NCBI RefSeq assembly: GCF_036588685.1
Contig: NC_086382.1
Span: 44,144,001 to 44,208,000 of the forward strand
Direction of reading: 5' to 3'
DNA: 64,000 bases
Origin: Mytilus trossulus
Lineage: Eukaryota
Part shown: positions 3,251 through 52,200 of the stretch, in pieces
How the letters are laid out: the number at the start of each line of letters is the position of its first letter
Position numbering within the stretch: the first letter of the stretch is position 1
Made by a program: the position numbers and the translations under genes
The notes under the pieces: generated by a model
The model's input: only the letters and a program-made list of their open reading frames with translations
Told to the model about the DNA's origin: nothing
The model's database searches: none

Positions 3251-4825
3251 TATATCAACCATTAATATATATAGCTATCATAAGTTATTAAACTAAGCCT
3301 CACAGAAAGGAAACAGTCTTAGTTAAATTTTGGTCAGGGTACAAAAATGTCCAAATAGTTTGATTTTAAAAACAAAAAACAAACCATCGAAGTCTTGGTG
3401 TTTTTTTATTTGAAGCGAGTCAACTATTGTTCAAATTCCACATGACAATTTATTATTTTTTAAATAAGACGTAGATAGAAGGACGAAAAGTAAAACAAAG
3501 GTAGTTTTTTTTTAATTTGCCTTACATAAAAGATTTTCATGTGATGTCGTAAGTCGTTGATGTTTTGCTATTACAGTCATAATGGTTTATACTTTTGAAA
3601 GATTTTGCGTTTCGAGCCAAAGGTTTTAAAGAAACTGAAACTGTAGACTTTGAAATACTTTACATGAAAAATAATGTACATGATATATGTTTTTAAGTCT
3701 GATTATTACTAAGGTTCAAATGTAGAAAATTATGGATTAAACCTGGTTTTAAAGCGCTAACCCTCTCACTTTGATGACATTCTCGTCAAATTCTGTTATA
3801 TTTACAATGATGCGTTAACTAAACAGACACAATAAATAAAATAGTCAAAATATGGGAACAGCAGTTAAAACAACTCTTAAAGAAAATTTAAATTAACAAA
3901 TTAAAGCGAATGAAAAAATAACAATTTTAGTATACCGCTGTTCAGAAGTCATAAATCGATTTTGAAAAAATTAAAACCGGATAGCAAAATGAAACTGAGG
4001 GAAACACATCCACTATAAGAGAAAAACAAAGAAACAACATCATCACTGAAGTGATGCAAACAACATAAGACAATGCAATATACATAGAAATGAACTTTTA
4101 GAAAACAACCGCCATATTCTTGACTTGAAACAGATCATGTTTAGAAAAATGGAACTTGAACCTAGTATTGTGGCTGGCCAAACCTCGTATTTTTTGGCAA
4201 TGTTCAATATACCGCTAAAATAATAACATTACATGAAAGAAATACAGTACACATCAATGCAAAAACCCTCAGGACAGGGAAATGCATAAATTAATAATAT
4301 AATAGTACATTTCGACATGTTAACTACAAAATATAAACGCAAATATACATAGAGAATCATCAAAGCACTATAACCTATTTGATCAACGTGCTCTGTGATT
4401 ATTATATATCATTTCAACGAGCTAGTCAACATCGACAAAAAAACCGAACATTTTTTCCTCGCGATCAACAATCATTGGCGGAAATATCATTTATCAAAAA
4501 TACGTTACATCATCGTAATAAATATAATTATACGTGCACACAGGACTTCATTTAGTATCAATACATGCACTGGTTCAATGATTTTGATATGAAAGAGGCA
4601 AAAGATACAAAAGAGACATTTAATTTTATAGGTCGAAAATAAACTTGCAACGCCATGACACAAAAAGAAAAGGACCAGCAGACAAATAATAGTATAAAAA
4701 CACAACATACAAAACTAAAAAATGAGCAACAAGATCCCCTGCCAAAACAAACAAATCTAAATAACATGCAACTCATGTCATATAACTTTAACAATGTATT
4801 GCTGATATCATTGTGTTATTTAGAG

Positions 4826-7800
4826 ATGGCACAAGTGTTAGCAGAACCTGGTGACGTTAGACATGGGTTTTCTTATAATACTTCATTCAACCGTGACTTT
4901 AGACGCATTACTGGAATAGCAGCTACCAGAAACGGGAATATTCTGTTGTGTGACTATGATAATAAGAATCTTATTTTAGTTGATTCATCAGGACATTTGT
5001 TAAAGAATCTTTATGTAGACAGTGAGCCATATGATTTGACTATTACAAGTCAAAATATAGGATTCATCACTCTCCCCAATACCAGATCTCTTTTACAAAT
5101 AGATCCTGAAAGAATGGTGATACTCTTTAAGGCAACATGTGAGGATCTACACACTAATGCGTTGTGTGTATCAGCCATCTCTAATAGAGGAGAAGATGTA
5201 ATTTTAAATTTTGCATGTTTGCTTGGCATTAAAAGACATGGTTCATTTTACGCAATCCCCTTCTTTAAAGGATGTGACGAAGAAATGTAAGTATTTATTT
5301 ACAAAACGTATGGTATATGCAAACACTTGTTTAGAATGCTCCAAGTATACATTCACGAATCCTGTAGATGTACATGACATTCCCTAAACATTGATAAGCT
5401 CAGTATAAACTAGTATAAAAACGTGCCGTTTACGAAAGTCTGTACAGTGTGAACAAACACAAACCTAACAGTTTAAATGCGACAAAGAGACGTTACCTGC
5501 TTAAACAAAGAAGTCATCGTTAGAGTGTTTAAATTATCACATGCATGTGTCATAGCTTCTAGTTTGCAGTCGAAATAAAAATAGAACTATGAATCAGACC
5601 TACTAGTAGTCAGAACTTATTGAAAGGAATATCAATTATATGGTCATTTTAATAATTAACTACTTGCTAAATTATAGGTAGTAAAAATCTTAAGGATTTC
5701 CTTATCCTAGGATTAGATTACTTTAGCCGTATTTAGCACAAGTTATGGAAATAGGGTCCTCAATAATCTTCAACTATATAGTTTTTGGCTTTCTAACTAT
5801 TTTGATCCGCGCGTCATGTGTGCATCTTATAAAGATGAAACGCGCGTCTTGCGTATCAGATTATAAGCCGGATGCCATTGATAACTACTACTAAATCAAA
5901 AATTCATTAATATATAAAGAGATGTAAACACTCATTGAAATGTGGGTTTTTATCAATAAGTATGAAAGTGAAATGCAAGAATTTGTCAAGATGCTAAATG
6001 AGTCGATGTCATGATTATCTATAATTCTACTCCATTGTGTCACATTTTCGAATTTATCATCGGAAAATCAGTTTATCAATCATTATTCAAATTGAGGATT
6101 GCTACACCAGTTTTTAAGAATATAGTTCCGAAAATGATGTTTTACATTATAGACATGTTGCAATTTTCCATTAGTATCTTAAATCCCAGCTGACAGATAT
6201 GAGAAGACTATTTTGAGGATTTTTTTAAAATACGTTTAATATGTAGTAAGTCATGCAACCAGGCTCTGTTTAAAGCTTTTGGATATCACATTTTAAAATT
6301 ACAAAACAAAAGAGTTATGTTGTGTAGCCTTCGTGACATATGTTTACTCTATTTTTGCTTGATAGAAATTGGATGGAACTTATGTAAAAAAAAAAACGAA
6401 TGTAATAAAATTAAAACACGTGTTCCTAAATTAAAGTATCTGTGTTTGTGCTGTATTTTTGTTTCAATATTTCATTTTATTTGAATTGATATAATCTCAA
6501 TCATAAAATTGATATTTAACCTTTTTATTGAACTAGAGTTGTGATTGTAAAAACTTAATATTGTAACCACATATCTTTTATTGCTGTAATGGAAACAAAA
6601 TGTCAGAAAAGTTGTAAAGAGGACAATGTGCAAAGATTCAACGAACCGAAATATCAACCATTTGGAGTGAAACCATTTTTATATACTGTGGATTCATTTA
6701 TTTTCGTGGGTATCAATTTTCGTGGTTTGAGGAAAATTTACATATTCGTGGATATTTAATTTCGTGGTTTTGGCAAAGTCTACACTCATTCCTTTAGAAA
6801 ATTTGTTATTCGTTGAAAGTTTGAATTCGTGGTTCTCCTATACCCATGAAATCCACGAAAATTGGTATCCAACGAATATTAATGAATCCACAGTATCCAT
6901 TAAGGGGAATCATATCAATAAAATTGTCGATAAAAAGGTTTTTTGTTTTTGTTGACATAATTTTGTCTTTGTCTGTTCATGTAAATTATTTTATAGAAAT
7001 GTAGGTTCGCCTTCATCATTAATGAAGATAATCGAGACGAACAACATATAGTAAAATTGCAAAAGTAAAGGCCTGCTACAAATAATAATACCGAACACGA
7101 TCTATAAACATGATAAATGAACAAGGAATTTTTACCTGATTATGAGAATACCATACAGTTGTATATCACAATTTATTGTTAATTAATTATAAATCAAATC
7201 ATGAATTCCTGCCGAAACATGGATTCAATCCAAATGTGACTCCAATAAAAAAAAATCAAAGCACTGTAAGCGCTGTAGGCAGTTAACCAAAAACCAAGGC
7301 ATATTTATAAAAACTGTGGCAATGTTGCTTCAATTTTTTTTAAAGATTTTTTAAAAAGAACAAACATTAAACAGTCATATATTGTACATTTATGTTTATT
7401 TAATGAATTAATCATTGAGGCAAATCATACCCATAGCCAGGGGGTTCGGACAAACCCCCCTTAAAAACAAATAAGCACTATTAAAGTCAATGTTCTGTTG
7501 AATTGTGACTGTTAAAGTCGAGTTTTTGAGTCCCACATTCCCCCCTTGGAAATTCCTGGCTACGGGCCTGAAATAATTCATATTTTGTCAAAGATTTTAA
7601 AAACAACACATATATCAAGTATATTTTTTTCATGGTCATGAGTCTGCGGTGGTACAAGTTTGCAATGATTGCAGTTCTTCTAGTTGATAGTTAACGTTAG
7701 TATTGGTTGACTGTAAGTAGTTCAAATTGACTTTAGTACGAGCTTGAAAAAGTATGAATAGATTTGCTTCCCTGGAAAGAAATCTGAGTTTGTGCTCATC

Positions 7801-10800: not shown

Positions 10801-12034
10801 GAGGCACCCGTCGTGTTGTTCATGTTATAACAAATCCGGTAAATAGTACAATTTGGTAGGTCACATTTATGAAAGGGAAGGGATTTGTAGTTAAACATAA
10901 GGAACATATCCAATATCATCTGTAAAACGGTTATATATTCCATAACGGTCAACCAACTCGTGATGGCGTTTGTAAAATTTAAGAACGGGTGATTTCAACT
11001 TCACCATGATGTAGATCTTTTGGTGTAATAGCTACCTAGTTTACCTTGTCTTCTTATTTTAAACACATTAACTTACCCTGGAAAGTCAATTGTGGTCAAA
11101 ACTGGTCATTTTGTATTTTATATGCAGCACTGAAACAGTAATTTGTATCGTATAGTCAGCTTTTTAGATATAGCCACTGGAGTAAGTACAGAACTGTTCA
11201 TAAAATACGCATGCAGTCTATTATAATCTATTCTGTATATGTTCATGACGTTTAGACTGTTCAGTTATTTATAAATACACCTGGAAATCATACTGCATTA
11301 ATAAAAAAAACTACTGCATATTTCTGCATTGACTGCAAATGGATGATTTGAACAGAACTGAATTGTCTCATGTGCGATTCAAGTTGGTTAACTAACTAGT
11401 CTAGTATGAACTCACTCAAACAAATGGGGGAAAATCTTTACCGCAGTTTAAGTAAGAAATATCAAAGGGGTTTCTTTTCTCTCTGTCAACGTTCAAATTA
11501 TCTTTATAACCGACATTCAGATCTCATATATATATATTTATAATATATCTTTTTTAAAGTAATTTCAGAAAACTCACAGACGTCATAGGCGAGCCAGGTC
11601 CGCTAGCTTACCTGAAATACCCTTTTCCTGTTCAATCCCGTGTTGTTAAATTCCATGCACTTGATGAAAAATCATTCTTCACATGCAAAGGCGGTCAAAA
11701 CTATATAACGTACAGTCAACAGAACATATATCATGGAAATATTATTATTGACACCATGGAAACACCTTCTGACATATGTAATGACGATTATCAACACATT
11801 TACATCAGTGCACAAGGATCGAATAACATACACAGATTGAAAAAGGAAGGGAAAGAAGTATATGACACGAGAGCCCATATATTTAAGGGAAAAGATTGGA
11901 AAGTATTAGACATGCCATTGGACTCCAAACACGGTATCAAAGAACCAGTTGCCATGTGCTTCAACCAAAACTATAGTAAATTTTACGTTGTCAATGAATG
12001 GGGGAAATCAGTATTAGTCTTTGATGTTATTTGA
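4826..12034 (+). CDS. Two-coding-exon gene (4826-5286, 11569-12034; 308 aa) encoding a stand-alone NHL-like beta-propeller resembling the C-terminal domain of bivalve TRIM-like proteins
   Basis: Acceptor ttatttag|agATG at 4823/4824; donor AT|gtaagt at 5286/5287 (phase 2); acceptor aatttcag|A at 11568/11569 restores the frame into ORF 11756-12034. Total 927 nt, no internal stop. Blade-like motifs: ITGIAATRNGNILLCDYDNKNLILVD, PYDLTIT, PSDICNDDYQHIYISAQGSNNIHRL, PVAMCFNQNYSKFYVVN. Confidence 0.8.
6686..6893. mobile_element. ~208-bp MITE (TA TSD); degenerate second copy ~18795-19003
   Basis: ta|CTGTGGATTCATT...AATGAATCCACAG|ta with internal ttcgtgg repeats. Confidence 0.8.
7805..8685. repeat. 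~120-bp minisatellite, about 7-8 diverged copies, in the intron of the propeller gene
   Basis: Recurring acaggaggggt.gggtgacc...ccctatatttcatttgatt...ccatacatgaatatatatggttt.gggtgggatctcgactgtttccaagtt at ~120-bp spacing. Confidence 0.8.
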
Positions 12035-16225: not shown

Positions 16226-16674
16226 CTATGCTATTTTTTCCCTCCACATTAAAAATAGTCGTTCCATTTTGTTCTTAAAACTGGGAAAGTTAACACTTCT
16301 GGTGTCCTCGATGTAATTTACCGACTGAATGGTGCACATATCAACTGACATTTCCTCACCGTCAATAATAAAGGGAATTATTCGGTCCCTTTTCTTTGGG
16401 TCATCTAAAGATTGTATTATATTAGCCTGTTTTCCAAACAGCATCAAATTATCCATAGACATATGTCGAGAATGATAGACAATAACAAGTCTACAATTTA
16501 AGAGGAGACTTGCTAATCCATCGAGGACGGGTGTGCCTGGTGTAATTATATCATCCGGTAAACCAATTGCAAGGTTTGGTACATTGACTTGTTCCAGCAA
16601 ATTTTTGTGGCAAAGTCTTGCAGCCATTTCATCTTCTGAAGCATGTAGGAGTACTGCATCAAACCACTGTTCTC
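16226..16674 (-). CDS. Gene A terminal exon: TIR domain (TICAM/TRIF-TRAM-like)
   Basis: Box1-like FDAVLLHASEDE, BB-loop ITPG, betaC CRLVIVYHS, betaD RIIPF, terminal F..KM.RL; acceptor tgtcttttaaag|GA. Confidence 0.88.
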
Positions 16675-19600
16675 CTTTAAAAGACAAATAATCAACTTAA
16701 CTTTCAATTGAACAAATGCATCTGCGTACAAGCTTTGATACACTCAACATGTGATTCTACATGCATTGTCTTCACTTTGCTCTGTTGTGTTGCATTTTTT
16801 TTGTGTACAATATTATTCTGTTGATCTTTTTTTTAATAGATATAAGAAGATGTGGTGTGAGTGCACATCAAAGTCACAATGTGTACTATAAAATATCAAC
16901 TGAAATTACTTAACACAATTAATTAGTTTCTAGTATCCCTCATGTCTCTAACAGTTTCGCCTATATATCAAGTTCACTGTACTTACTTTGATACAATTGT
17001 GTTGCATTGTGTATCTGTATATAATATAGACATCATATTAAAACAGAAAATTAATAAACACAAGGAAAGCTAGTACGAACCTTTGGTATTATTTTTTTAA
17101 GTAAACTACTGCTTGGGTTTTCAAAGCTTTAAATATCATTTTTACAAAATATTGTTATTTTGATAAGTTTTGTATTTGTTTTTTTTCAAATCTCATTTCA
17201 CAAAAATAAATTACCTCGGCGGCATAACGTGTTAACAGTAATGGTCAAGGAAAGAGAACTTTAATACTTGTCCTAAGTCAGGAATCTGATGTACAGTAGT
17301 TGTCGTTTGTTTATGTAATATATACGTGTTTCTCGTTTCTCGTTTTGTTTATATAGATTAGACCGTTAGTTTTCCCGTTTGAATGGTTTTACAATAGTAA
17401 TTTTGGGGCCCTTTATAGCTTGTTGTTCGGTGTGAGCCAAGGCTCCGTATTGAAGGCCGTACTTTAACCTATAATAGTTTACTTTTTAAATTGTTATTTG
17501 GATGGAGAGTTGTCTCAGTGGCACTCACACCACATCTTCCTATATCTATTTAATAACATTAATCACTTTGTGTACATACCGACAGAACCCCGGTCTTCTT
17601 CCAAATCATTACCGTCTGAAAACAGTGCGAACATCTTTTAAACAAGAATGTTTTGTTTGGTGCTAAGTTTGTTTACATGTGTAATAAAATCTAAATAACA
17701 TACATTTTAGTACTGACATTGGGTTGTCACCATTGTACAAAAGCTTTGCATCCGTATGGTATTATTTTTAATGAGTTTCATTATTGCAAAAATCGAATCA
17801 TCATATAAATATTAATCCAAAAAGCAACAGCTTTTAAAAGCATATTCCTACATTTGATTATGAAACTTTTGAAATGTTTAAGATGATATCTTTTTTTATA
17901 TATTTTCTATTAATAATAAGAGTCTGGAAGTGGAACCTTTTTTGCTATATTCTATACATTTGTTTGTATGACTCTTTCTTTATCCACATTAAAAAATAAT
18001 GCTTATTCTCTTAAATGTTCATGAAAATTATTTTACCACTAGATTCATTTGTTATTACATGATTTCGTCTTTTGGAACATGGTGCCTTACTGTGATTCAT
18101 ATTTTAATGTCTAATTCTTTAGATTATCATAGCTATTTTATTCCTTTCCACTATTCTATATTCTATTCTTTTTACTCACTTTTCATTTCTTTCATTCTTT
18201 TTTTATCAATCATTCCAAATTTTGTAAATCCCGGGATGTCGGTTTATTTTTATTAAACGGGGATATATTTTCCAGACTTAAAATATTTTGTTTTACTTTT
18301 CACTCATATTTCTACATATATCTTTAAACTGGGGTCAAAATGCCGTATAAATAAAACAATCGTAACTTACTCAAACGTGCGTCTTCTACTGAATTATCTT
18401 GCATCAGTTGAGTACTGGTACGACTAGGTAAGTCTGATTGTGACAATGAAGCAGAGGTAGTTGTCAAGCCTAAATAAAATATGTTTTACTTGAAAACAAA
18501 TCTAATATTTACTACAGAACAATAACGTAAATGTACATTTATGACGTATAAACGCATGACATGATAGTCTTCAAATCGAATTAAATTTTTCGTTTCTATA
18601 GAAAATAATCTCTTTATCTTAATGAATTACTTAAGGGTATAATACTTTGCCGATATAATAAGAGAATAAGTTACAAAGGCCTTTGTGCAGTTGGGTTTTA
18701 TTTGTTCCATGTTACCAAAACAATACGTTGCCGATCTAATTAGATAATCAGTCACATATTACAAACGCCTTTCTTCGATTGGTTTGATTAGTTCAGTGTG
18801 GAGTCATTTATTTTCTTGGGTACCAATTTTCGTGAATAAAGGAAAACTTAATTGTTCGTGGATATTTAATTTCGTGGTTTTGCTGATGTCTGCATACAAG
18901 CGCATAGAGAATTTATTATTCGTTGAACATTTAATTTCGTGGTTCATCTGCAGCCACGAAATCCACGAAAATTGGTATCCAACGAATAATAATGAATTCG
19001 TAGTAAATATCTCTGTACCGAAGATTTCGCTAAAATAGGGTATCGGCGAGAAGATAAATTTGGCGCATAAATGTTCATTAGTTCTTCCTATTGTTCGCAG
19101 AAATGTCCTGTGAACCCTTATCACTATCGTTTAAATGTTACACAATCCTTTACATGTACACTTACAAGAGTCTGGAGGTGGAACCTTTATTTCTGTATCC
19201 TCTTCCTTTTTGTGTATGATTCTTTCTTTATCTATAAAAATAATGATTATTCTCTTAAATTATCATAAAAACATTTTTACCATTAGATTCATTTGTTATT
19301 ACATGATTTCTTCTTTCTGAACATGGTGCCTTTCTGTGAGTACTTTATTGTCTTGATTTAGTTTTTCTTAGCTATTAATAGACCACTTTCGAGTTCATCC
19401 GTCACCGGAAAAAACTCGTCAATTATACGCGCCTTTATCATCGTCATTTGTGCGTTTAGGGGCGTCGTCACTTCCTTCCAATGTTGAGCGAGTGGTTGGA
19501 AAACTATAATTCTATATTGTACGAATTATTCGGCAAATTGAATTCTCAAAATTGACAATCAACACTGCTGTCATTAGGGAAATGTCAGTAAGTACCTACA

Positions 19601-21232
19601 GAGCAACCATTATTTCTAGTTTATCCTGCACAAAGACGATCACTAAGACGCTTGATGAACGTAAATAGTGCAGGGATACAGGCGAGCCCCTCTATCTGGT
19701 AAATGACCTCATAAAGGCGTGTATAATTGACGAGTTTTTGCCGGTGACGGATGAACTCGAAAGGGGTCTATTCCTTTGCAACTCCGGAGTATCGTTTTTT
19801 TGTTTTTTTTTCATTTTACTGGAATATATTTTCCGGACGTGATATTTTTATTTTCTTTTCACTCATATTTCTACATATATCTTTAAATTGTGGTTAAAAT
19901 GCCGTATAGATATCGTAGCTTTCTCAAACGTGTTTATTCTTCTGAATTCCCGGGTATGAGTATGAGTTGAACACTGGTACGATTTGGTGAGTCGGATTGT
20001 AACAATGAAGCAGGGGTAGTTGTCAAGCCTAAATAAAATATGCTTTACTTGAAAAAATACTTTACATACTACAGTACAATTAGTTTCATGTCCATGCAGT
20101 ACGTATACACGCATGTCATGGTAGTCTTCAAATTGAATGAAATTTTACGTTTCTATAAAAAAAAAATATTACAAAATTGCGAATGTTCATGTGTTCAAAT
20201 CAACAGTATTAATGGGTCAAACTGGGTTGGATTGTTTTATATAAAAAAATATGTGGTATATTTGCCAATGAGACAACTGTAAACTAGAGACCATTAACAA
20301 CTATAGGTCACCGTACGGCCTTCAACAATGAGCAAAGCCCATATCACATAGTCAGCTATTAAAGGATCCAATAAGACAATGTAAAACAATTCAAACGAGA
20401 AAACTAACGGCCTTATTTATATAAAATGAAAAGAAAGAAAAACAAATATGTAACACATAAACAAACGACAACCTCTGAATTACAAGCTCCTGACTTGGGA
20501 TAGGCACATACATAAATATTGTGGCGGAGTTAAACATTGTATTGATATGTTAAAGTTTAACACGACTTTCGACATTATTGTGCAGTATCGTGGCTGTCTT
20601 TTTTCTATTGGTAGATAATTGGCATAATTGCTCGGAGAGACCAAAAGTTACTGATTTTTGGTAGGAAACCTGACAAGCATAGTCCTTAATTTAAGATTGG
20701 AGTTAAGCGCACCTGCCATGTACGTGCATGATTCGAACACACAACTACTGTGTTGACAGGCTAGTGAAACGGCAGATTGTTACTTGGACCACTTCTAAAC
20801 CGAGTCCACTAAACCAGGAAGGAGGTACTATTCAAACCAATCACTCATTAACGGTACCAATGTGTCTTCAACAGATCTGTATTTAGACAATATCTTTTCA
20901 GAGATGCTAAAATCCGAAATATTCAAAGAACTTTGATGAATAGAAAAGTAGAGCCAAAGGCAAAATGGATATTTCAGTATTGTTTAGATGTGCAAAAGAG
21001 TCCCGATCTCCCTCCTTCAACCTCACCGCCCCCCCCCCCCCCCCCCCCCAAACTCCCAACCCATTCTTCCTCACCCTAAAAAAAAGGAAATATATCGAAG
21101 GCATTCCTTATATATGTACAGCTTGTAATTATATATAAAAAAAATACCTGTTTGTCGTTTAGTCCAGTAATACCCAAACATCCAACAAACTGCAGCTGTT
21201 CCGAAAACAAGGCATACATCTTTTCCACTCAT
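16226..21232 (-). CDS. Gene A: signal-anchor + S/T-rich linker + TICAM-like TIR protein, 222 aa; exons 21232-21148, 18469-18371, 17615-17580, 16674-16226
   Basis: All introns GT-AG and phase 1; 85+99+36+449=669 nt open. Protein begins MSGKDVCLVFGTAAVCWMFGYYWTKRQT-GLTTTSASLSQSDLPSRTSTQLMQDNSVEDARL-NGNDLEEDRGSV-GEQWFDAVLLHASEDEMAA... Architecture mirrors gene B. Confidence 0.8.
17580..17615 (-). CDS. Gene A 36-nt microexon (NGNDLEEDRGSV)
   Basis: ttttcag|...|gtatgt, phase 1-1; peptide motif matches the two gene B microexons. Confidence 0.75.
18371..18469 (-). CDS. Gene A 99-nt Ser/Thr-rich linker exon
   Basis: ttttatttag|...|gtaagt, phase 1-1, open frame; a dead paralogous copy lies at 19924-20028. 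Confidence 0.75.
19381..19768. mobile_element. MITE with ~70-bp TIRs, probable TA TSD
   Basis: GACCACTTTCGAGTTCATCCGTCACCGG... / ...CCGGTGACGGATGAACTCGAAAGGGGTC; absent from the paralogous empty site at ~18131-18150. Confidence 0.82.
19924..20028 (-). pseudogene. Pseudo-exon: duplicate of the gene A 99-nt exon
   Basis: Clearly similar to 18371-18469 including flanks, but has an in-frame TAA (..NSEE*), a 6-nt duplication and a donor changed from GTAAGT to GAAAGC. Confidence 0.75.
21148..21232 (-). CDS. Gene A first coding exon: short hydrophobic signal-anchor followed by basic residues
   Basis: gtttgcag|gctgaacATG...ACAG|gtattt; 85 coding nt, MSGKDVCLVFGTAAVCWMFGYYWTKRQT; same length and phase as the gene B first coding exon. 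Confidence 0.75.
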
Positions 21233-24200: not shown

Positions 24201-27200
24201 AAACGTTTTAAAGCCAGACAAGTACAAAGTTGAAGAGCATTGAGGACCAAAAATTCCAAAAAGTTGTGCCAAATACGGCTGAGATACATCTATTCATGTA
24301 ATAAGAACATCCTTAGTTTTTCGAAAAGTTAATGTTTTGTCAACAGAAAATTTATTAAAAGATGACCATATAACAGATTTTCATGTCCACACCAAATTTC
24401 TGACTGCTGGACTGGCATATATTTTAATGATGATAATTATAAAAAAAAAACTAGAGTCAAAAGATACCAAAAGAGATCAAACTTAAAAGTTTTGTCATTG
24501 GCACTCATACCACTTCTTCTTTATGATAAGTCGAAAACAAACTCACAATGCAATGGCAAATCATAAAACAACAGTGTATAAAAATACATCAAGAAAAATA
24601 AAGACTAAGGAACACGAGACCCGCCAACCATCGGGTTGGTCTAAGGGGCTCCAGAGGGGTAGGTATATTCTGCTCTACACATGGTACCTTTCTTGTTCAT
24701 TAATTACAAACTCGTTGATACGTCTAAATATCCCTTCGATGAAACGAAAACCAGACTGTGCTTACGACAATTGCAACCTATCCGTTGTAATCTGTGTGAG
24801 GTATATTATAAAAGTTTTGTTAATAAAAATGCCCTGTTCAATAGTAACACGTTTCTCACATTTTAGAGTGTAAGATTTCGTAGGAAAAAATCTATAAGAC
24901 ATCCTGACGGAATAGAAAACGCAAAAGACGAAAGTGTGAAATGTCCAATACTTCAAGGTAAAAATCATTAAAAAACCTCAAGACAAAAGAGATGCGGGTA
25001 AATAGAAAGGATGAAATCGAAAGGTTTGAAGCTCATAAGACATTATCAATACATAAAAAGTATAGTTACCAAAGGACTTCAAGTCTTTTCTTCTGTTAAC
25101 TTATGAAAGAGCATTACTAAGAAGATGTTATTTTAAATCAGTTATCGGTAGTGCTCATACCACTGTCCGTCGTTATACTACTTCGTCAAGTAATAGTATT
25201 TGGTTTCTAGTTGGATTATCGATCTTTGCAAGTGATTGATTTACCCATAATCCTCCTTTTGACGTCGACATTTAGGAAAAGCAGACGCATTTTTATCCAT
25301 AGAATTATCTTCTAAAAAATCGACACCAATCTGACACATAAGTTGTTAAAAACCTTATTTTTTTTAAAACTGTTTCAAATGATATTTATCAAGGATTTAA
25401 TTGTCGATTATTTTGACTCGATGGATACAATTGTCGAAGGGTCATGGCAAAATTATGATTCTTAGCAGACGGCATGGTCAGGTTTTGTCGTCATTCCGAG
25501 AAGAAAATAGTTACTTCTACATCGAATTATTTCTAAATTTTATTTCCGATATGCAATTTTGACAATTTTAATTTAGTTTAAATTTACAGCAAACTTTATT
25601 TTTGTTGATTAGAGACGCACGTTAAAATGTTAAGATGACTGGATTATTGAATACAAAATTTAAAAAAAATGTTTGTTTTACGATGGATGGGCCATTGGCA
25701 AATCTTGTATTCATTTTTTTTTTCTCGTGCGTTGAGACACGATCGGCCACAGCAGAATCAGCAGATGTGTTGGTTTATTTATTTATTTATTTATTTTTGT
25801 TGTTTTTGTTTGTTTTGCATTGTTTTTAATTCTTATATGTTCATATACATATTTACACAATTTATCATAGCATGTCTTTTTCAGTTTAAAATGCTTAGGG
25901 TATCTGGTAGGAAGGGCGACAATGTGGTCTACATCGGCTAAGAAATTTTTTTTGCGTTCAAACATTGATGGAGATTCGGGTGTTAACAGATCTATAGAGG
26001 GTCCAGTAGTAACAACTTTACACAGTTCAAAGGTTATGTCTATGACTATGGCTCCGGTATTCACGACCGCTACTTCTAGTGCTGCTGATGATTATCAGGT
26101 AATTTTCCAGTTTTTCCAAACCCATCTCCGTGTAGTAAGGACAATGACGAGCTTGCAAGAAATGTCGATAATTTAAAACATTTCAGGAGAATATGTTGAT
26201 CTGGCCTTACTATTAGTTTATTCACAGGCCTCTTCTGGGCATAATTAGAAAGTCGTTGTTTCACAGGATCTTTTGATACCCCGGAAAGGGGGCGGGGGTG
26301 TTCTTCCTATATTTTTATATATACGAATGTGACGCAAAAACATGGTCCCTTATTTTCATGTCTTGCTGATTAGAACAGGGTTGCTTTTTTATGCCCTGCT
26401 GTCGGGAACAGGTTGATTTTTAAACAATCGATTTAAAAAGGACAGATTGGATACTGGATATTATCACAAGTATGTTTTTGCTTACATTAATAAACTGTTT
26501 TGTGACAGGTTTTATATTTCTGAACTAGTCTAGAAAATATAGGTCTCTGTCCAGAACAAGGTATACATTTTCCGAGCGTGTCTAGAACAGGGTATACATT
26601 TTCGAATTCTAAGCATTTCTAGAACAGGTATTTTTTTCAATATTTCTGTTTAGAACAGGGTATGTTTTGCAATGTTTTCTGGTTAGAACAGGGTATGATT
26701 TGCAAAGTGCTGTCGGCAAAGAAATTTACACAATAGGTACATTGTGTAACTGGACAGATGCGTTTTTTAGTCTATATTAGTATATTTTGTACTACTGCTC
26801 ACTCGACTGTTTTTCAAGATCGACTCAAGTACATGCATAGTATACGGCTAGGCGCACTAGTCGTACGATAAACAATTTCGTCTCAGAATGTCGCAGGATC
26901 CAGCTGGTTCTTGGGCTGTCATTGACCCTGACTTATGGCTGCTCAATATGTATCCTACGTCTAGTATTGGTAAATGCAATAAGCATGGGGCGCTTAAAAT
27001 GTTACGCATTCAATTACCAAGGTTCATGCGTGAATCAATCATGTGCATATACTCATTCTTGTTTAAGATGCTTTGATCAGCACCCACTTATGATTCAGTG
27101 CCCCAGACAAGACTGTTTTCCTCAAGGCAGGCAAAATGTAAGATTTGAGCAAACAAGCCTCAGTTTAGACTGAGATTTAAGGCACATGTGAGCAACTCGT

Positions 27201-37508: not shown

Positions 37509-37960
37509 TTATCGCAATGTCTTTCTCCAAGAGTCTACTAATTTTTCAAACTTCTCTTTGAAAGTTGGAAACTGACGATGATTTGTGTCATTAACATATT
37601 TTAAATGTATAATTGGGGATAATTCCACTGATATTTTTTCTTCATTCACTTGCAATGGGATTATTCTTTTTGCTTTCTGAGGATCTTCCAGTGACTGAAT
37701 GACATTTATATCTTTCCCATAACCTGCAACTGTATCTGAATCAAGGCTTTTAGTTTGATAGATAAAAACTAGTCTGCATGAGTCTAAGATAGAACTTAGT
37801 CCAGGCAGGAGTTGACTTCCAGGTTCAAACAAATCTTCCGGTAGTGCAACTTGTAGATTTGATATATTTGTAAAATTATTCATTAAGAATGTTTTACACT
37901 TAGTTGCTTCATTCTGGTCTTTTTTCCCGTGTAATAATAAAATGTCATAGCGAAAGATAT
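37509..37960 (-). CDS. Gene B terminal exon: TIR domain (TICAM-like)
   Basis: Acceptor tttatcgttgcag|AT; YDILLLHGKKDQNEA, BB-loop LFEPG, SCRLVFIYQT, KRIIPL. Confidence 0.88.
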
Positions 37961-40900: not shown

Positions 40901-43900
40901 GAGTATCAAAAATTCCAAAAAAGTTGTGCCAAATCATATGAAAATCAAAATACCATTCTGAAAAGTAGTATACTTAGTCTTACAAAAAGCTACCAGAAGT
41001 TGAAAACGCTATTCTAACTAATAGACCATCCTTTATATATCTCTGACTACAATATAAATCAGTACACTTCTAAACAATTTAGGGTGCAGAGGTCATAGGT
41101 AGAACTTGACCTTGTGTACTGAAACATATAAAACTACCAAACAAGAAAACCCCAGACTAAATATGCGACTCGTTATCTTTGCATTGTTGTCGTCATGAAA
41201 ATCGTGATTGAAACTACAGACATGGGTAAAGGGAGCGAGGTGTAACATAATCAATTGAGTATAATTGAATGAGCCACTTTTATACCTAGCGCTCTGTCTT
41301 CCTCCACATCAAGTGGACCTGTTTAATAGAAAAAACACATATTGTGATTATTAATAAAATTGAGAATGGAAATGGGGAATGTGTCAAAGAGACAACAACC
41401 CGACCAAAATAAAAAAACACAACAGCAGAAGGTCACCAACAGGTCTTCAATGTAGCGAGAAATTCCCGCACCCGGAGGCGTCCTTCAGCTGGCCCCTAAA
41501 CAAATATATACTAGTTCAGTGATAATGAACGCCATACTAATTTCCAAATTGTACACAAGAAACTAAAATTTAAATATCACTTGTTTAAATGATAATTATG
41601 TCGAACTAATGTTTTAGGATGTTATTCAAAAGCAAAGATAAAGTTTTTTGTCCTAGTCAGACATGACAAAACATGCATGACAGAAGATATTTATTTAGTC
41701 AGCTCTGAATTTGACCTAGTTCTATTCAGACTGTGTTCCCTTAATTATCGTCTGTTTGTACATGCTTTATGATGAACTATTCAAAATACTAGTAGCATTG
41801 ATTATACAAAAATGAACAATAATATATCGATAAGGTCGAACAGAAGTTGTTTAGTATCAAAATATCAATAAAGGAAAATCTCTTTGATCAATCTGCACGG
41901 TCATATGCATGTATGGTAATACATTCGATGCCATTAAAACTTAAAAACTAGATATGACATGTCACTGATAACAAAGTAAATTCGGTTAAGAGAAGATCAT
42001 CAGCTGAATTGATGTAAAACATAAAACACACATAAAACAGTTAACAGAATGAACTTACATGAAGTCAATTAAAATATTTCCCGCCCAAATCCATTAGAAA
42101 ATGGAGATGCAAGATACCAAAAGGATGTTGAAACTATTATACGTTTCAGACAAACGGACATCGATAAGGGAGATAAAAACTAAAAATTACGAAAGTCTAC
42201 AAAAACACAACACAGACAAGCGTTAAATACATGTTCGTTAGTTGATTTGTACAACACCGCTTTGATTTGATCAATGTGGACCATTTGCTTTCATTAACCG
42301 TTGAATGTTCCTGATTATCTATGATCATTTTCATTATGATTAGTATTATAAGCAAGAATATATCGCTTCAAATAAAAAAAAAATGAAATGTCCTTGGAAT
42401 TACATTACGAAAGTAGAAAATTTAATGTGACCCATTTATACCTATAGGTCTGTCTTCTTCTATATCATCTTGACCTGTACAACAGAAAAAACAATAAATG
42501 TTACGTTTTCAAATAATTTAAGATTGGGTTAACAGTTTTGGGTCATTATTCCAAAACTATGTTCCAAATAAGGTATTGTATTGTCAGTCGATTTTTCAAT
42601 AGTTATTTTTGTAGCTATTTGGTGTGATCTAAGGCTCCGTGTTGAAGACCGTACTTTTTCCTATATTGGTTTACTTTTACAATTTAAGAGCTGGATGGAG
42701 ATGTATCTTATTGACACCCATTCTACGTCTTTATATTTCTATTTGCAAAATACGTAATAAATGCAAATTCGATACAATTAAACTGAATATGCAGTCTATA
42801 TACACTTTGTAGAAATTGCACATGAAATACGAATTGAAATCACTCTTGATACGAATATAAAGCATATACGCAGATAAAAAAGATGAACCTTTTATCGAAA
42901 AAATATAGAAAGATATACTTACTGCTTTGAGCTAAAGGTGTGTTCGATTCCACAGAAAAAATATTTGCATCGATATTTTAATATATATGTCTGTACATAT
43001 CATGTATATTAGTAAATTAACACATATATCAAGCTTCGTCATGTGCATTAGTACTCCCCACATGTGCTTTATCCTGTTATAATCCATAGTATTACAGAAT
43101 AATTTCACGTTTTGTTCAATCAATAATTTGCAATTCAAATTATAACTATCATTTTTCTCAAACAAATATCTAGTTTTGAAGTTCAAATCATCACTTTTTG
43201 GTCAGTGACAGTATATGCCATAGTAATTGTGTATTATTCAGTGATTGAAACAAAATTTTACTTAGACTATACTAAAAGATATTGACAGAACAATTGTGAA
43301 AAATTATCAACAAAAACAAAAAGAAACAGATGAACTTGTACCTACTCGATGATATACTACATTAGGTACTTTTTTGATAGTTGTCTCGTAGACCTTTTAG
43401 TCGGTTCTTCTAATAATGTAAATAAATTAAATGGGATTTCATTTTCACTTTCAATTAATGTACACACTTTGTTGCGGTATTTTTCTACGTTGATTGGATA
43501 TACTTAATATTAAATGTCTTCCTTTAAATGCCACTTTATATGACAGAAATATTATGAAATATTATAATTTTTCAAAAAAGGAACATAACAGTATTTGTTC
43601 CTTATAGCATAAAGGGTTTCGAAAATTTGTTCAATTAGAAACAGGTAGTATAGTTTTGTTTATTCAAGAGGAACTTCAGTTAGAGGGATCAATTAAACAC
43701 TGCATCTGTCTAAACCGTAGTAAATCAAATATAAAATCAAACCTCCTTAAATTTTAAGAATTATATCTCATATAATGTTAGCAAGGCTCTTTTAATTCTG
43801 TTTTTTAAATTTGTATTCTCTCAATTTTTGTGTTCAATAATTTAAAGATACATGATAATAAATGTTGTTTTTTTTCACGGTATCTTATTCGAACGGTGCT

Positions 43901-46900
43901 CTAATAAGATACCGTGAAATTTTCATCGGTCAGCGCCTACCGACAATATTCAAAGTTATGCGGCTTAATAGTACGAACCTCCTTATACAATAAGCTTCAA
44001 TGACTAAAGTGTGTTCTCGGCAATATTGATACATATGTAGAGACGAGAAAACAAACAAATTGTATTACAACAGTGACGATCTATAATTTATAGATGTATG
44101 TCTGTTTTTGAAATAATTATCTTCATTAAAGACAAATGTTATTGTTATTATACATGCTACATCACTAATTTATACATTGATGCAATTCGTGTTTACTGTA
44201 GGCATGTCAATCTAATATATTTAACTGTTTAACTGATGCGTTATTACGCTAAGAAGAATAGGTTTTACCTTCAACTGGAATTTCTTCATGAGTACTTGAT
44301 TCTATCTTTCTGCCTATCCGTGGAGTTTCTTCTGTAAGACTGTCAATCTAAAACAAATTAAAAACAATTACAGGAAAATACAATACGAAATTAATCTGTC
44401 TTACGTTATCACAAACATTGAAAACAGCATGTATAAATGAAATGCGCTCGAAGGGCTTTTCTGGATGTATTTTCATTCGGAACGCTCCCAGCCGTATATT
44501 TGAACGCCAAGGATGTATAAAACAGAAACTGTTGAAGAGCTTTACAATGAAAAAATGACATAAGATAATAGCCAACTCATTCTAAAGATAATTTTGTCCG
44601 GGGAAGTACAAACCTTTATTTAAAAGATTCATTCATATCAAAAAGGGGTTCTTTTTTTCAATGTCTAGTTAATTATAAACACAGTCTTTTTTTCAAAGTG
44701 CTTTAATCTTTCATATAATTTTCAAAATGTAGATTCAACTCGTATGTAAACACGGACAATAAAGGGTCTGATATGCATTCAGTAAAAAACATATCTATTG
44801 TCTGAGACTGTATGTTCCATTCAGATATCTTTTGGGTTTTTTTTTGTTTTGTTTTGTTTAATTTATACATTGGCGGCACTCTTTAATCGTATCTACTTCA
44901 TCATTATAATTACATCCATTTATTTTTTTGCGTAGAGACCATTCTATACACGTACGACATATGGTATTTCGTTTCGTCAGATATATGTTCCTGTTTATTG
45001 GAACAGTCGATTCAAACTAGCAAATATCAATCATGTGCCATTTAAATGTTGTTTTTCATGAAATTTCAAGGTGATAAGATCTAAATCCTTTTTATTTTTT
45101 TTTGTTGTTCAGACTTTTTCTTAAAGTACGATATTATACGTTCAAAAATGTTACTGGGAAAACTCAATAATAAAACAATGTTTATCAGTCCTTTAAACTA
45201 TGTGCTGTACCTTCAATGATATTTTATAAACTTCGTCTTTCATAAATTGTTCTAAGCTGTCGCATTTCTCTTTTAGTAATTTTAGCTGGGATTCAAGACT
45301 GGCGTTGTAGTGGATGTTCAATTTTCTTGATCTTTCATGTATATTTGCACCTTCTTTCTTCAAGGATGTCATGATTTCTTCGAATTTTCTTTCTAACGCT
45401 TTTTTGTCATCTGTCTCAGCTTTGCCTAGTTCATTTTGATGTGTTTGTATTACTTCTAATTTATCTGTAACGGTCTTCTCGTATTTGGTATGTTCTTCTA
45501 GTTTATCCGCTATGAGGCTAGTTTGTTTTGCGTCTTGATATTGCTTTTCTTCCATTCGTTTTATATGCGCATCCAGTGCTTGTAATTGTTTCAATTGGGC
45601 TATGATATAAAACAAGAAAAGATCATACCTACGCTAACGTCAAAAGGTAAGCTAGCTATAACACAAGGTTTAATTAACCATTTTCTGCATATAAAAACGC
45701 CTGAACCAAGTCAGAAAAATGACATTTATTGTCCCTTCGTTTGATATAAATAAACTCATCATAGGTTCCAAAGACTCAATTTTATATATACACCAGAAGC
45801 TCGCTTCGTCTACAAAAGACTCATCAGTGACGCTCGAATCCAAAAATGATTAAAATACAAACCCAATTTAAGTACGAAGTTGAAGAGCATTTAGATGTGT
45901 TTGAGCGTTTGATTTATATTAGGGTCTTACCGTTTTCCTCCGAGTTCAGTTTTTTGTGATTTTACTTTTGTCTTAAAAGAGAACTATTTCGATGTACTAA
46001 GTACTTATTTTTTTTAAATAAATTTATTTTGTTTAATTGGTTGATTTATCTTGTCCTTCATTCATATAAAAAAAATTAAGGTGATTTGGTAAGATTATTA
46101 ATAAGATAACTATAAAAAAAATCTGATATAAATCATAAGATCCTGTGACGGCTCTTGAATTTTACGATTTAGGATTCTAACAAAACCCTTATCTTTTTTT
46201 CTGTTCTGTCAACACCAACTAATAATCTTCCAACTTCTATATTTGGAAAGTTATGTACTGCTAAGACAATACCAAAGGATCCTGAGAGGTCTTTATAACA
46301 AGGAAAGTACGGAGCGTTGTAAGATCTATACTAGTAATACGTGGACATATGATCTGTATTTCAATCAGATGAGTCAGTCGATATGGAGCATTATTGATCA
46401 ATCAACCGAAACTATTCAACAATGCAATAAACGTATTACTATGGAACACCACAGCTGTCTTATGTGGAACTCTGATATTACTTTATGTTGTTTTATTATT
46501 ACTTAATGATATTTGTCTTTCCTTAATATGGTTTTGACATTACGTAATGGTGTTTAAATATAACTCAATATATAATAGCCATTGTTTGATGCTATTTCGA
46601 TATTACACGATCATATTGTTTTGTATTGACTTCATATAGTTTTGTCATTACTCGTTGTGGTTTCACCATTATTTAAAATGGTTGTGTCATTAGTCAATGT
46701 GGTTTCAACATTACTTGATGTGTATGTGACTTAACGTAATGTAGTTGTTTCATTACATGATTTTTTCCGAATTGGTCACGTTGTTTTACCTCATCAAGTA
46801 ATGGGATAACCACATCAAAGAATGACAGGACCACATCTAAGAATGACAAGACCACATCAAATAATGACACAAACATATCAAGAAGTGTAAAAGCGTCAAA

Positions 46901-49900: not shown

Positions 49901-52200
49901 GGAGCACTTTGTCTTTATGGATTAAAAGATATTCCAAGTCAATATGTCCACTGCGACAAAAAATACAAGTCTAGAAAATACATCGCAATCACTCTTAAGG
50001 TTCTCTAGCTTTGTTTTTTGACAAAATTTTACAATTTTGTTTTACAGACATAATAGAAATTTGTTCTTTTTTATCTGGTTATAAGAAACAGGTTCTCTTT
50101 TGTTTTTCATTTGCTTCTAACGATCTTCGTATTGTTTGCCTTTGATCTTTTGAAAGAAATCCTTTTGTGTTTATTAAGTCGTTCATCTGTTATAGAATGC
50201 CTCAAACCACTAGATCTTGCAAGTTCATCTGATAGTCTACTGACTTCTTGTCCAGCTACCATCAATACGTCTAAATGGGGTTTTCTTTTAAACATATGAC
50301 AACAACATCGCCCTTCACAATTGCATTATTCTGGGATTTATTTTTGCTTTATATGGACTGCATGTGCAAAATCTGACTCATAAAATGAGCATACTACCAC
50401 ATTTCCAAGAAGTTCTTATTCTATAATTGAACGCCAGGAATTAAACTGTGGTCGAGATGACTATATTTTCTTACACCAGTCTACCAAATCATTGAACGTC
50501 ACAGAGTCCTGGCGTGATCATAATTTCTGTATTTAGCTTTCTTTAGCCAATATTTATCATTCAATCTAACACACAGAGTTATCTGATGCGCGTGTCTAGT
50601 CCTAGATACATTTGAACATATACATACAAAGAATATGCCGTTCTCGGTGTTGCAATATGGGTTTTTGTGAGAATATATGTCCATCTATTATCACGTAATA
50701 AATCACCCAGAATTTTATAACAAGTCATTTCAATGTGCAATCCACCTCACATGACGATTAACTTATCTTCTCTGGACAAATCAGGCCATTCCCACTGAAT
50801 AACCATGATTACTAAAAGTGGCTGATCTGCCGTTACTATTGATGTTTCTCTCGTATAAACCACATTTTCCGCCTTATCCATCGAATACTTGATCTTTGCA
50901 ACTGAATAGGCTTGTTGCTAAAAAGTGGCATCATAGATTTTACACTTACTTGAACAGCTCTACAAGAGCCTTCGTTTGAGTAATGATATGAACTGCGATT
51001 TATACCAGTTTGCCCTGGTAGTACATACAAATCGCTCATTATGTCTATAAATAGGTTGCACATGCGCAAAATTGTCAAATCATATTTATCATAACCTTGG
51101 AAAATGTTATCAAACCAAATCATGATATAATTGAAAAGCCCAAAACATTTATTTTATAGTAAATAGTTACAATGTTTTTTAATGAATTTTGTTACATTTC
51201 GCGCATGAGCAAACCCTTCAGATGTCAAACATTCATGTCTCGTGAATTCTTACATGTAAGGAAGGCAGCTACCAAACCTGATAGCTGTTTTTCACTTAAA
51301 GAAGGTAAACGAAAAATTTCAAGAAAAAAATCAGTATTTTCTAGCTGAAAAAAACTACCATTTTAGAAAAAGGCCGTGGCCATCTTGAAAAAAATAATTT
51401 TTTTAATGACCAGCAGTTGTTCCTTAAAAAGTATATAATAATGATGCTTTGTGGAAATATCTATGATTGTATCATCATTTGCACAATTCCCTTGATTTTG
51501 CCTGCTAATATCTTCCACTAACTTTGCAACTAATGATTTCAATGAATACCTGTTATACAAACAATCTAACTCCTCGTATGTGTTGCTCAATGAAATATCC
51601 AATAAGATTTGCCGAAATCCCTATCTTACCAAGATACATCGGCTAACATGAACGAGAATTTATTACAAATACAGATATCCATACCTCTTTGCTGTAGTGC
51701 CTGGACAAACAGCTTCATATGGGGGTCTCATTGGAGGGTTCTGATCCCGGATCCCGCTTACTGTTTTGTCAGATTCCCGTATCCTGCTTACACTATGTAA
51801 GTAAGCAATTATCTTTTTTTTTGTAATTTCCTGGGTCCCGCCAGACTTCATTTCCCGTTTTCAAGCACAATAATTTGTATTTCACGTGTCCCGCTTACAA
51901 AAAATCGGCAATCCCGCGTGACGCTAAGACCCCAATGAGACCCACTCATATTTGAGGTTTTGAAATAAGTAAGAGATGAATGCAGTGTGCATACCACAAA
52001 CGTCTCATTGGCTGATGGATACTTCAGAAAAAATCAGTAAGGGTTACTTACGATAATAATGCAACGGCTTTGGTGATATGCTTAATTCTTGGAACAAATG
52101 TTATAATATCCTTACCCGACTGTACTCTGAACAGTTTATACGAAATTCCACATCCAAGTAATACGCCGCCTAACACACAAACAGAATCCCTTATATTCAT
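37509..52200 (-). CDS. Gene B: signal-anchor + coiled coil + acidic linker + TICAM-like TIR protein, 356 aa; exons 52200-52116, 45599-45211, 44347-44269, 42474-42442, 41318-41286, 37960-37509
   Basis: All GT-AG; intron phases 1,0,1,1,1 are consistent; 85+389+79+33+33+452=1071 nt open. TIR exon is an obvious paralogue of gene A (LLLHGKKDQ, FEPG, CRLVFIY, IQSLEDP.K..RIIP, FPTFKEK). Confidence 0.78.
38122..39150. mobile_element. Tc1/pogo-like non-autonomous element
   Basis: ta|CAGTAAAACCTGTGTAAACCGG ... CCGGTTTACTCAGATTTGACTG|ta. Confidence 0.7.
40097..40825 (-). mobile_element. Tandem hammerhead retrozyme, family 2 (351-nt unit, 2 copies), inserted in a family-1 copy (~40030-40935)
   Basis: aagattaacggtacc recurs at 40101, 40452 and 40803; minus-strand gcatca-CTGAAGA-gac..gtc-GAAA-tgcgca-TC at ~40125-40170 and ~40476-40521. 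Confidence 0.82.
41286..41318 (-). CDS. Gene B 33-nt microexon (GPLDVEEDRAL)
   Basis: attaaacag|...|gtataa, phase 1-1; homologous with flanks to 42442-42474. Confidence 0.72.
   Translation of the reverse strand, partial: VHLMWRKTER
42442..42474 (-). CDS. Gene B 33-nt microexon (GQDDIEEDRPI)
   Basis: ttgtacag|...|gtataa, phase 1-1. Confidence 0.72.
44269..44347 (-). CDS. Gene B 79-nt linker exon (IDSLTEETPRIGRKIESSTHEEIPVE)
   Basis: ttgttttag|...GAAG|gtaaaa; phase 0 to 1, exactly bridging the coiled-coil exon and the microexons. Confidence 0.75.
45211..45599 (-). CDS. Gene B coiled-coil exon (~130 aa)
   Basis: Inside ORF 45193-45615; E/K/Q/L-rich, no Pro, heptad-like; acceptor ttttatatcatag|CC, donor AAG|gtacag. 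Confidence 0.8.
46440..47294. mobile_element. Foldback element: ~310-bp inverted arms built from ~21-bp subrepeats
   Basis: tatggaacaccacagctgtcttatgtggaactc... / ...gagttccacataagacagctgtggcgttccata; internal accacatc.a.gaatgaca repeats. Confidence 0.8.
48147..51520 (-). mobile_element. Academ (XPG-type) DNA transposon remnant in an intron of gene B
   Basis: TIRs TAGTGGGAGATATT.../...AATATCTTCCACTA with long degenerate extension, 3-bp TSD ACT. Minus-strand remnants: HGEADIRMFVH (~49545-49580), TDTDV, FVHLFSRCET...FRGK (XPG/PIN-like), and a Cys-rich C-terminus (LLKCG...CVTVGNCTC...LPCT, ~48790-48870). Confidence 0.8.
51721..51947. mobile_element. Short MITE
   Basis: TIR gggtctcattgg / ccaatgagaccc. 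Confidence 0.6.
52116..52200 (-). CDS. Gene B first coding exon: signal-anchor-like segment
   Basis: tttttgcaacag|tgcccaaccATG...TCGG|gtaagg; MNIRDSVCVLGGVLLGCGISYKLFRVQS; 85 coding nt, phase 1, same as gene A. Confidence 0.7.

Follow-up and report, generated by a model that had tools for sequence, protein, structure and literature searches.

The origin of the TICAM adaptors has been placed in chordates by reviews and by papers on mollusc immunomes (PMC6043800, PMC9334734, PMC9440496, PMC7075850), with TICAMs rooted in lancelets (PMC9440496), and TRIF and TRAM have been reported absent in bivalves or molluscs (PMC4892480, PMC9334734). Bivalves were found to possess TBK1, TRAF, IRF and RIP1 but neither TRIF nor TRAM, and the existence of an adaptor still to be identified has been suggested (PMC4892480). 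In addition, a 2012 study of M. edulis listed a single weak match to TRAM (HE609076) and cited TRIF/TRAM-like genes in cnidarians (PMC3308963), and a scallop pathway figure legend lists TRAM and TICAM2 (PMC12521104). A 64,000-nt stretch of the 1.3-Gb Mytilus trossulus genome (NC_086382.1, contig C10 in the numbering used below, positions 44,144,001–44,208,000; hereafter the window, in whose coordinates positions are given) carries two tandem TIR genes, A and B, and raises the question of whether the TICAM lineage extends to molluscs.

The reading preferred here, with a probability of roughly 0.6, is that A and B encode TRAM-like, membrane-tethered scaffolds of the TICAM lineage, whose TIRs are devoid of the NADase glutamate. 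An earlier note on this DNA described the TIR features of both genes correctly; the N-terminal anchor and the spread of the family through the genome escaped it, as did a second subfamily of which one member on its own directly matches TICAM2.

Organisation of the two genes

The interval singled out in the earlier note, 16226–16674, is exactly the last coding exon of gene A, with an AG acceptor before 16674 and a stop codon ending at 16226, and lies in a minus-strand open reading frame of 16226–16696; the TIR of gene B is held by a frame at 37509–38072 on the same strand (Table 1). Upstream exons were mapped by tblastn using M. galloprovincialis P0001 for gene A, and M. californianus P0010 and P0027 for gene B. 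Joined at GT-AG sites, the model of A (16226–21232) is open and encodes 244 aa, and that of B (37509–52200) encodes 346 or 357 aa; both models bypass exon copies that carry stops, and transcript support covers the last join of A only. This support comes from contigs of four out of four sequencing runs, one recorded as RNA and three guessed to be, which span the A TIR exon, end at its acceptor and splice to the upstream 36-nt exon, with the exon joint of A-type contigs falling near 16675/17582 in each run. Divergence of these contigs from the window is ~3–11%, and they therefore derive from congeners or paralogues.

Table 1. Exons and exon copies of genes A and B in the window
Feature	Position	Strand	Basis or remark
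Gene A terminal exon	16226..16674	-	Complete TIR domain and stop; TIR fold in AF2 model
Gene A 36-nt exon, acidic pre-TIR motif DLEEDR	17580..17615	-	tblastn; splice joint in 4/4 runs
Second duplicated A linker-exon copy, probably a pseudo-exon	17916..17987	-	tblastn; in-frame stop
Gene A linker exon, Ser/Thr-rich	18371..18469	-	tblastn with P0001; AG/GT ends
Gene A linker exon	19166..19231	-	tblastn with P0001; gene model
Duplicated A linker-exon copy, probably a pseudo-exon	19924..20028	-	tblastn; in-frame stop, no GT donor
Gene A exon 1, predicted N-terminal signal-anchor, then KR	21148..21232	-	29/30 residues identical to P0001; hydrophobicity
Gene B terminal exon	37509..37960	-	Complete TIR and stop; 57/146 aligned residues identical to A
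Gene B optional 33-nt acidic exon, VEEDR	41286..41318	-	Gene model
Gene B 33-nt acidic exon, IEEDR	42442..42474	-	tblastn; gene model
Gene B exon homologue, skipped in the intact model	43296..43397 (approximate tblastn span)	-	Out of frame, with stop
Gene B linker exon	44269..44347	-	tblastn; gene model
Gene B exon, coiled-coil-like stretch of ~130 aa	45211..45599	-	64% identical to P0010
Gene B exon 1, predicted N-terminal signal-anchor	52116..52200	-	75% identical to P0010

The close protein matches of this tandem pair are from Mytilus. A is laid out as an N-terminal hydrophobic anchor, a linker and a C-terminal TIR, and B as an anchor, a coiled coil and a C-terminal TIR, with weak Pfam matches of coiled-coil type in the B orthologue P0010. 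In both genes, tiny symmetric exons (the 36-nt exon of A and the two 33-nt exons of B) encode a conserved acidic [LIV]EEDR immediately before the TIR. Internal duplications of ~80% identity at 17918–20165 have copied two gene A linker exons, with one copy of each carrying a stop, and the last intron of A contains a high-copy repeat (~17270–17550) at which contig depth is very high in each of the four runs.

Elsewhere in the window, exons resembling NHL/beta-propeller domains lie on the plus strand at 4643–5290, with a weak Pfam NHL match, and at 11558–12034; we take these to belong, probably, to a neighbouring TRIM-like gene. Open reading frames with Cys/His patterns at 26841–27173 (plus) and 30761–31345 (minus), matching no Pfam family at cutoff, are possibly fragments of mobile elements.

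Motifs of the TIR domain

Pfam TIR_2 matches A and B at 22.8 and 19.5 bits, below its cutoff of 28, and AF2 models A with a TIR fold (pLDDT 82.6). LH in box 1, PG in the BB loop and a segment IIQSL[DE]DP..K..RIIP, all noted previously, were confirmed in both minus-strand reading frames, and the human motifs cited alongside them agree with PDB alignment rows. The box-1 LH is present in TICAM1 and 15 of 23 family TIRs, as against none of 32 canonical TIRs and none of six SEFIRs. Similarly, a BB loop of the form acid-acid-x3-[PA]G is found in A, B and TICAM1, and in 8/23 family rows versus 0/38 non-family mussel rows; the TRIF-group BB motif, which replaces RDxxPG, has been given as EDFxxPG (PMC7075850). 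At the position of the TRAM AEDD site (PMC11788365), after betaA, A reads ASEDE and B GKKDQ, with the exact LHAEDD occurring in three of the 23 family rows (paralogues L008, L143 and L145). Neither A nor B has a Pfam SEFIR match, and a mussel SEFIR HMM scores both at ≤0 bits.

The principal rival is that these genes belong to a fast-evolving invertebrate TIR family, perhaps one of the ecTIR-DC families, that has no more than general TIR homology in common with TICAM and whose TICAM likeness reflects drift from the consensus, long-branch attraction and convergent motifs. That the family and TICAM have several separate derived motifs in common argues against this explanation, which is judged possible, if somewhat doubtful.

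Profile and reciprocal searches

Against the PDB, profile A1 (18 rows, A included) scored TICAM2 at 43.8 bits, followed by MyD88 (27.8), TICAM1 (26.9) and MAL (11.8), and profile A2 (13 other family rows) scored TICAM2 at 46.3 and MyD88 at 32.7; for profile A4, built from 11 A/B-subclade rows excluding A and its orthologues, TICAM2 was the only TIR matched (35 bits). Two of these three profiles share no sequence, and all three rank TICAM2 top. A control profile of nine other mussel TIRs placed TLR1 first (93.6), with MyD88 at 64 and TICAM2 at 37, ranked 38th; as this control scores TICAM2 about as high as A4 does, the TICAM signal resides in rank and not in absolute score. Among single sequences, L013, L008 and P0025 also rank TICAM2 top, the last only at E=0.3, and searches of the PDB with A or B singly found no TIR. 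The agreement of three profiles and three single members on TICAM2 counts against an unrelated family.

A search of 1.84 billion proteins with A returned 18 matches, two of which (P0017 and P0022) were repeat artefacts and were dropped; among ten that were looked up, hummingbird TICAM1 (P0023) was the only named non-mollusc TIR. An HMM of the family built without A and P0004 scored this TICAM1 at 48.8 bits, whereas TICAM1 scored 28.2 on the TLR HMM, 18.1 on that of other TIRs, 2.7 on that of SEFIR and 1.7 on that of MyD88; the family HMM also ranked it over all mussel MyD88, TLR, other TIR and SEFIR sequences. The SEFIR value bears on long-branch attraction, as SEFIRs are long-branched too, yet score near zero with TICAM1. 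Searching the genome with TICAM1 returned A, with B at only 17 bits, a reciprocal match to A that is partly circular because TICAM1 was found through A. Identity to TICAM1 amounts to 41/138 residues for A and 33/139 for B, against 23–31 matches to MyD88 and TLR rows; such low identity would also be expected of an unrelated family. In the ESM Atlas unnamed clusters came first, with TICAM2 scoring 0.87 against A and 0.89 against L013, values that serve as leads only. Together, the profile, reciprocal and motif tests support the TICAM-likeness of the TIRs claimed in the earlier note.

Phylogeny and structure

A 63-row tree without SEFIRs united the family, the second subfamily and TICAM1 in a clade with support of 99/98. 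When six SEFIRs were included and 21 rows dropped (redundant rows, the long row L005, and A and P0004, removed on account of chance identity with P0023), the TICAM clade was not recovered, and the SEFIRs nested among long rows. A tree with SEFIRs in which A was restored and three long rows were dropped, a choice made after the non-recovery had been seen, gave the clade at 90/77, with TICAM1 sister to all mussel members. Loss of the clade in one of three trees is a point for the unrelated-family explanation. All of the trees had a single TICAM (hummingbird, found via A), and were built without amphioxus TICAM, MAL, SARM, IL-1R or BCAP rows; BCAP and SARM were left out because own-genome searches for TIR_3/BCAP and a SARM motif found nothing, which is not proof of absence.

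AU tests rejected the grouping of the family with MyD88 (p=0.0017), which the earlier note had named as a result that would overturn its proposal, and that of TICAM1 with MyD88 (p=0.0009). Family plus TICAM1 was not rejected (p=0.32–0.33), and neither were the rival placements, a point in favour of an unrelated family: family plus SEFIR (0.18), family plus canonical TIRs without TICAM1 (0.30), and TICAM1 plus canonical TIRs (0.24). In likelihood mapping, 1083 of 1500 quartets (72%) were unresolved, and 272 of the 345 resolved quartets paired TICAM1 with the family. A pre-chordate origin of TICAM, as proposed previously, is likely but unproven, given the rivals that survive at p 0.18–0.30 with SEFIRs present. 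Orthology to TICAM is not provable from this material, because it holds one TICAM, itself found through A.

The fold of A does not discriminate further. Foldseek with the AF2 model placed MyD88 first and TRAM second, and in VIA the Z-scores were 15.0 for TRIF (rmsd 2.6, 133 aligned), 15.0 for TRAM (2.6, 133) and 14.6 for MyD88 (2.8, 135), such that the modelled structure leaves the three tied; this failure to separate TICAM from MyD88 would again sit comfortably with an unrelated family. A homodimer prediction for A scored 0.00 and speaks neither for nor against self-association.

A family across the genome, and a second subfamily

At least 17 related TIR exons of the A/B family (one with a stop) and a second subfamily of seven were found in the M. 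trossulus genome, at least 24 in total, and named relatives include the oyster Saccostrea. All 17 of the family proteins or exons that were scanned score under the 28-bit cutoff of TIR_2, as does bird TICAM1 (22.4); the family is therefore probably missed by cutoff-based surveys. These TICAM-like exons would be named, testable candidates for the missing bivalve adaptor.

In the second subfamily, L013 (C4:95.756 Mb), searched as a single sequence, has TICAM2 as its sole animal TIR match in the PDB (E=5e-8, along its length). The gene to which it belongs (L013/L101, C4:95.756–95.762 Mb) comprises a TIR exon, a helical extension, an in-frame RHIM-like exon and a long Ser/Pro-rich exon. The RHIM-like stretch (L101, about 3696–3750) was recognised by eye in an in-frame exon 1.5 kb downstream of the TIR, and Pfam RHIM does not match it. 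An ad hoc RHIM-like pattern gave one match, this motif, in 1.54 million six-frame residues, a result that constitutes no test because the pattern was written after the motif was seen; the pattern has no match within the 64-kb window. As a TRIF-like candidate, the C4 gene may surpass both A and B. It has paralogues at C2:68.08 and C4:95.709 Mb, and the AF2 model of the subfamily (pLDDT 51) was too poor for a structure search. No further TICAM1 or second-subfamily locus turned up in metagenome scans.

The second subfamily also has relatives among TIR-like exons of very divergent sequence (L092, L093, L094 and L097; C13:34.5 and C2:72.3 Mb), with an Ig-like exon near L093 on the same strand. Within the A/B family, L008 (C15:1.7365 Mb) and P0030–P0034 are long members (700–830 aa) in which an extended disordered linker connects an N-terminal anchor to the TIR; the VILHAEDD of TRAM recurs exactly in L008, whose TIR exon is identical in translation to an M. 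trossulus protein, and one of these long members is annotated "mucin-12-like".

Predicted membrane anchor and putative mechanism

The N-terminus of A, like that of B, is a moderately hydrophobic stretch with K/R behind it. Of 19 full-length family proteins that were scored, 18 start with a hydrophobic segment; this set includes many isoforms and orthologues and leaves out short TIR-only predictions. A rule for mitochondrial anchors combines a WW value <0.4 with at least three basic residues behind the anchor (PMC4010795). The first part holds for 11 of 12 family anchors, A itself lying just above it at 0.43, and the charge part for four of the 12. The mitochondrial outer membrane is a plausible location, with the ER or endosome as alternatives. 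An MG start, the myristoylation motif, occurs in two of the 19 proteins; A starts with MS and B with MN.

Neither pLxIS nor TRAF6 motifs emerged from a scan of the A model and the B orthologues P0010 and P0027, and a regex match in P0001-3 was discounted, as it sits within strand betaB. Pfam, which detects both TRIF-NTD and RHIM in TICAM1 (P0023), finds neither in P0001 or P0010, nor a Death domain in either. The lack of TRIF-NTD and RHIM in A, B and orthologues is what an unrelated family would show. If A and B are nevertheless TICAM-lineage scaffolds, their output would need a partner, because they have no effector motif. In such a scheme the predicted anchor would keep the TIR at the surface of an organelle, exposed to the cytosol, where the BB loop and acidic AA loop would allow it to seed or join two-stranded TIR filaments, as described for the TRIF and TRAM TIRs, whose signalling form is a parallel two-stranded filament held by BB-loop contacts (PMC11745336). 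A and B would then probably pass a receptor signal to another, effector-bearing TIR adaptor, for which the C4:95.756 Mb protein with its RHIM-like motif is a candidate.

It is tentatively suggested, as a broader and rather speculative picture, that the TICAM lineage predates the protostome-deuterostome split, and that bivalves expanded it in two tiers mirroring TRAM and TRIF, with numerous organelle-anchored TIR-only sorting adaptors, A and B among them, recruiting a TIR plus RHIM-like signalling adaptor. If so, molluscs would gain a MyD88-independent link to TRAF3/TBK1/IRF or RIP machinery, possibly on mitochondria. If the resemblance is instead convergence, there remains an unstudied family of membrane-anchored TIR scaffolds.

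The same ancestry could also have produced the opposite output, with A and B as TIR-only tethered decoys that weaken signalling by capping or sequestering the filaments of TLR, MyD88 or TICAM-like proteins. Such a role has precedent in amphioxus TIRA and TIRC, which inhibit MyD88 and TICAM signalling (PMC6043800), and would fit an A model without effector motif, as well as the loss of the BB-loop Pro in several paralogues and the variability of interface positions. However, A and B retain the BB-loop PG, and TRAM, likewise composed of an anchor and a TIR, does signal; a decoy function is accordingly considered rather unlikely.

Scaffold or enzyme

The Gly that the earlier note had placed by eye at the catalytic-Glu position of A and B was confirmed in the 63-row alignment, and HMMER pairs the Gly of A with Gln of human TRAM; this placement is by sequence alignment and not by residue-level structural superposition. 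In the same column Glu occupies 20 of 20 mussel TLRs and nine of ten other mussel TIRs, and Gln both mussel MyD88s and bird TICAM1. The idea that A and B have enzymatic TIRs, performing NADase or other nucleotide chemistry with a different catalytic residue, is highly improbable: a few paralogues do carry Glu at this column (1/23 and 1/7 rows, with P0015 and P0019), but A and B have Gly and are without an alphaC motif of the Trp/Cys type, conservation at the column is lacking in the family (nine different residues among 23 rows), and no NADase TIR is among the PDB matches of the three family profiles.

The preferred description of A and B as scaffold TIRs is therefore well supported, in agreement with the earlier note. 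The use of the missing Glu as a marker of TICAM, which that note had also implied, was rejected, because MyD88 and TRAM are without Glu too: mussel MyD88s carry Gln, and none of TRIF, TRAM, MAL and MyD88 has the catalytic Glu, SARM1 being the sole human TLR adaptor with it (PMC11745336). An absent Glu thus favours a scaffold, and does not favour TICAM identity.

Comparison with known systems

MyD88 resembles A and B in being an adaptor-type TIR without catalytic Glu, structurally as close as TICAM, and differs in that A and B lack a death domain and encode the TIR in one exon, as opposed to three in mussel MyD88. In each of two tandem mussel MyD88 genes (L132 and L133, C2:96.13–96.16 Mb) the TIR is divided among three exons, and the protein ends in a long Ser-rich tail.

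Among invertebrate proteins, the ecTIR-DC families (Gerdol et al. 2017, PMID 28109746) are uncharacterised TIR proteins proposed as adaptors (PMC6321704), and may already include the mussel A/B family; HE609076 from M. edulis may likewise be a member. In a literature search over partial texts, with Gerdol 2017 and Yang 2011 outside its scope, no TICAM-lineage family was found described for bivalves. Amphioxus bbtTICAM provides an invertebrate TICAM-type TIR, likened here by its published description. It has been described with a RHIM (PMC6043800), and RHIM has been reported as not conserved in lancelets (PMC9440496); the TIR plus RHIM-like exon of the mussel C4 gene recalls this arrangement, whereas A and B have no RHIM.

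TICAM1/TRIF (hummingbird P0023; human PDB 9DK8 and 2M1X) shares with A and B the BB-loop acid-acid-x3-PG spacing, and is the top VIA row for A, in the tie with TRAM and MyD88. It differs in that the A model and B orthologues are without TRIF-NTD, RHIM, pLxIS and TRAF6 motifs.

The closest parallel is with human TICAM2/TRAM (PDB 2M1W, 9DKI and 9DLG), which has been described as a membrane-tethered bridge (PMC11788365). TRAM is the top PDB match of the three family profiles, and shares the box-1 VILH, the acidic AA loop, the absence of a catalytic Glu, and the combination of a membrane tether and C-terminal TIR with no death domain. It differs in that its tether is N-myristoylation, whereas that of A and B is a predicted transmembrane signal-anchor; in the ~16–20% identity of structural alignments; in being a single gene, compared with at least 17 genomic copies of the mussel family; and in the coiled coil that B adds. 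Lacking TRIF-NTD, RHIM and myristoylation motifs, A and B are neither TRIF nor TRAM proper, and probably represent members of a wider TICAM lineage.
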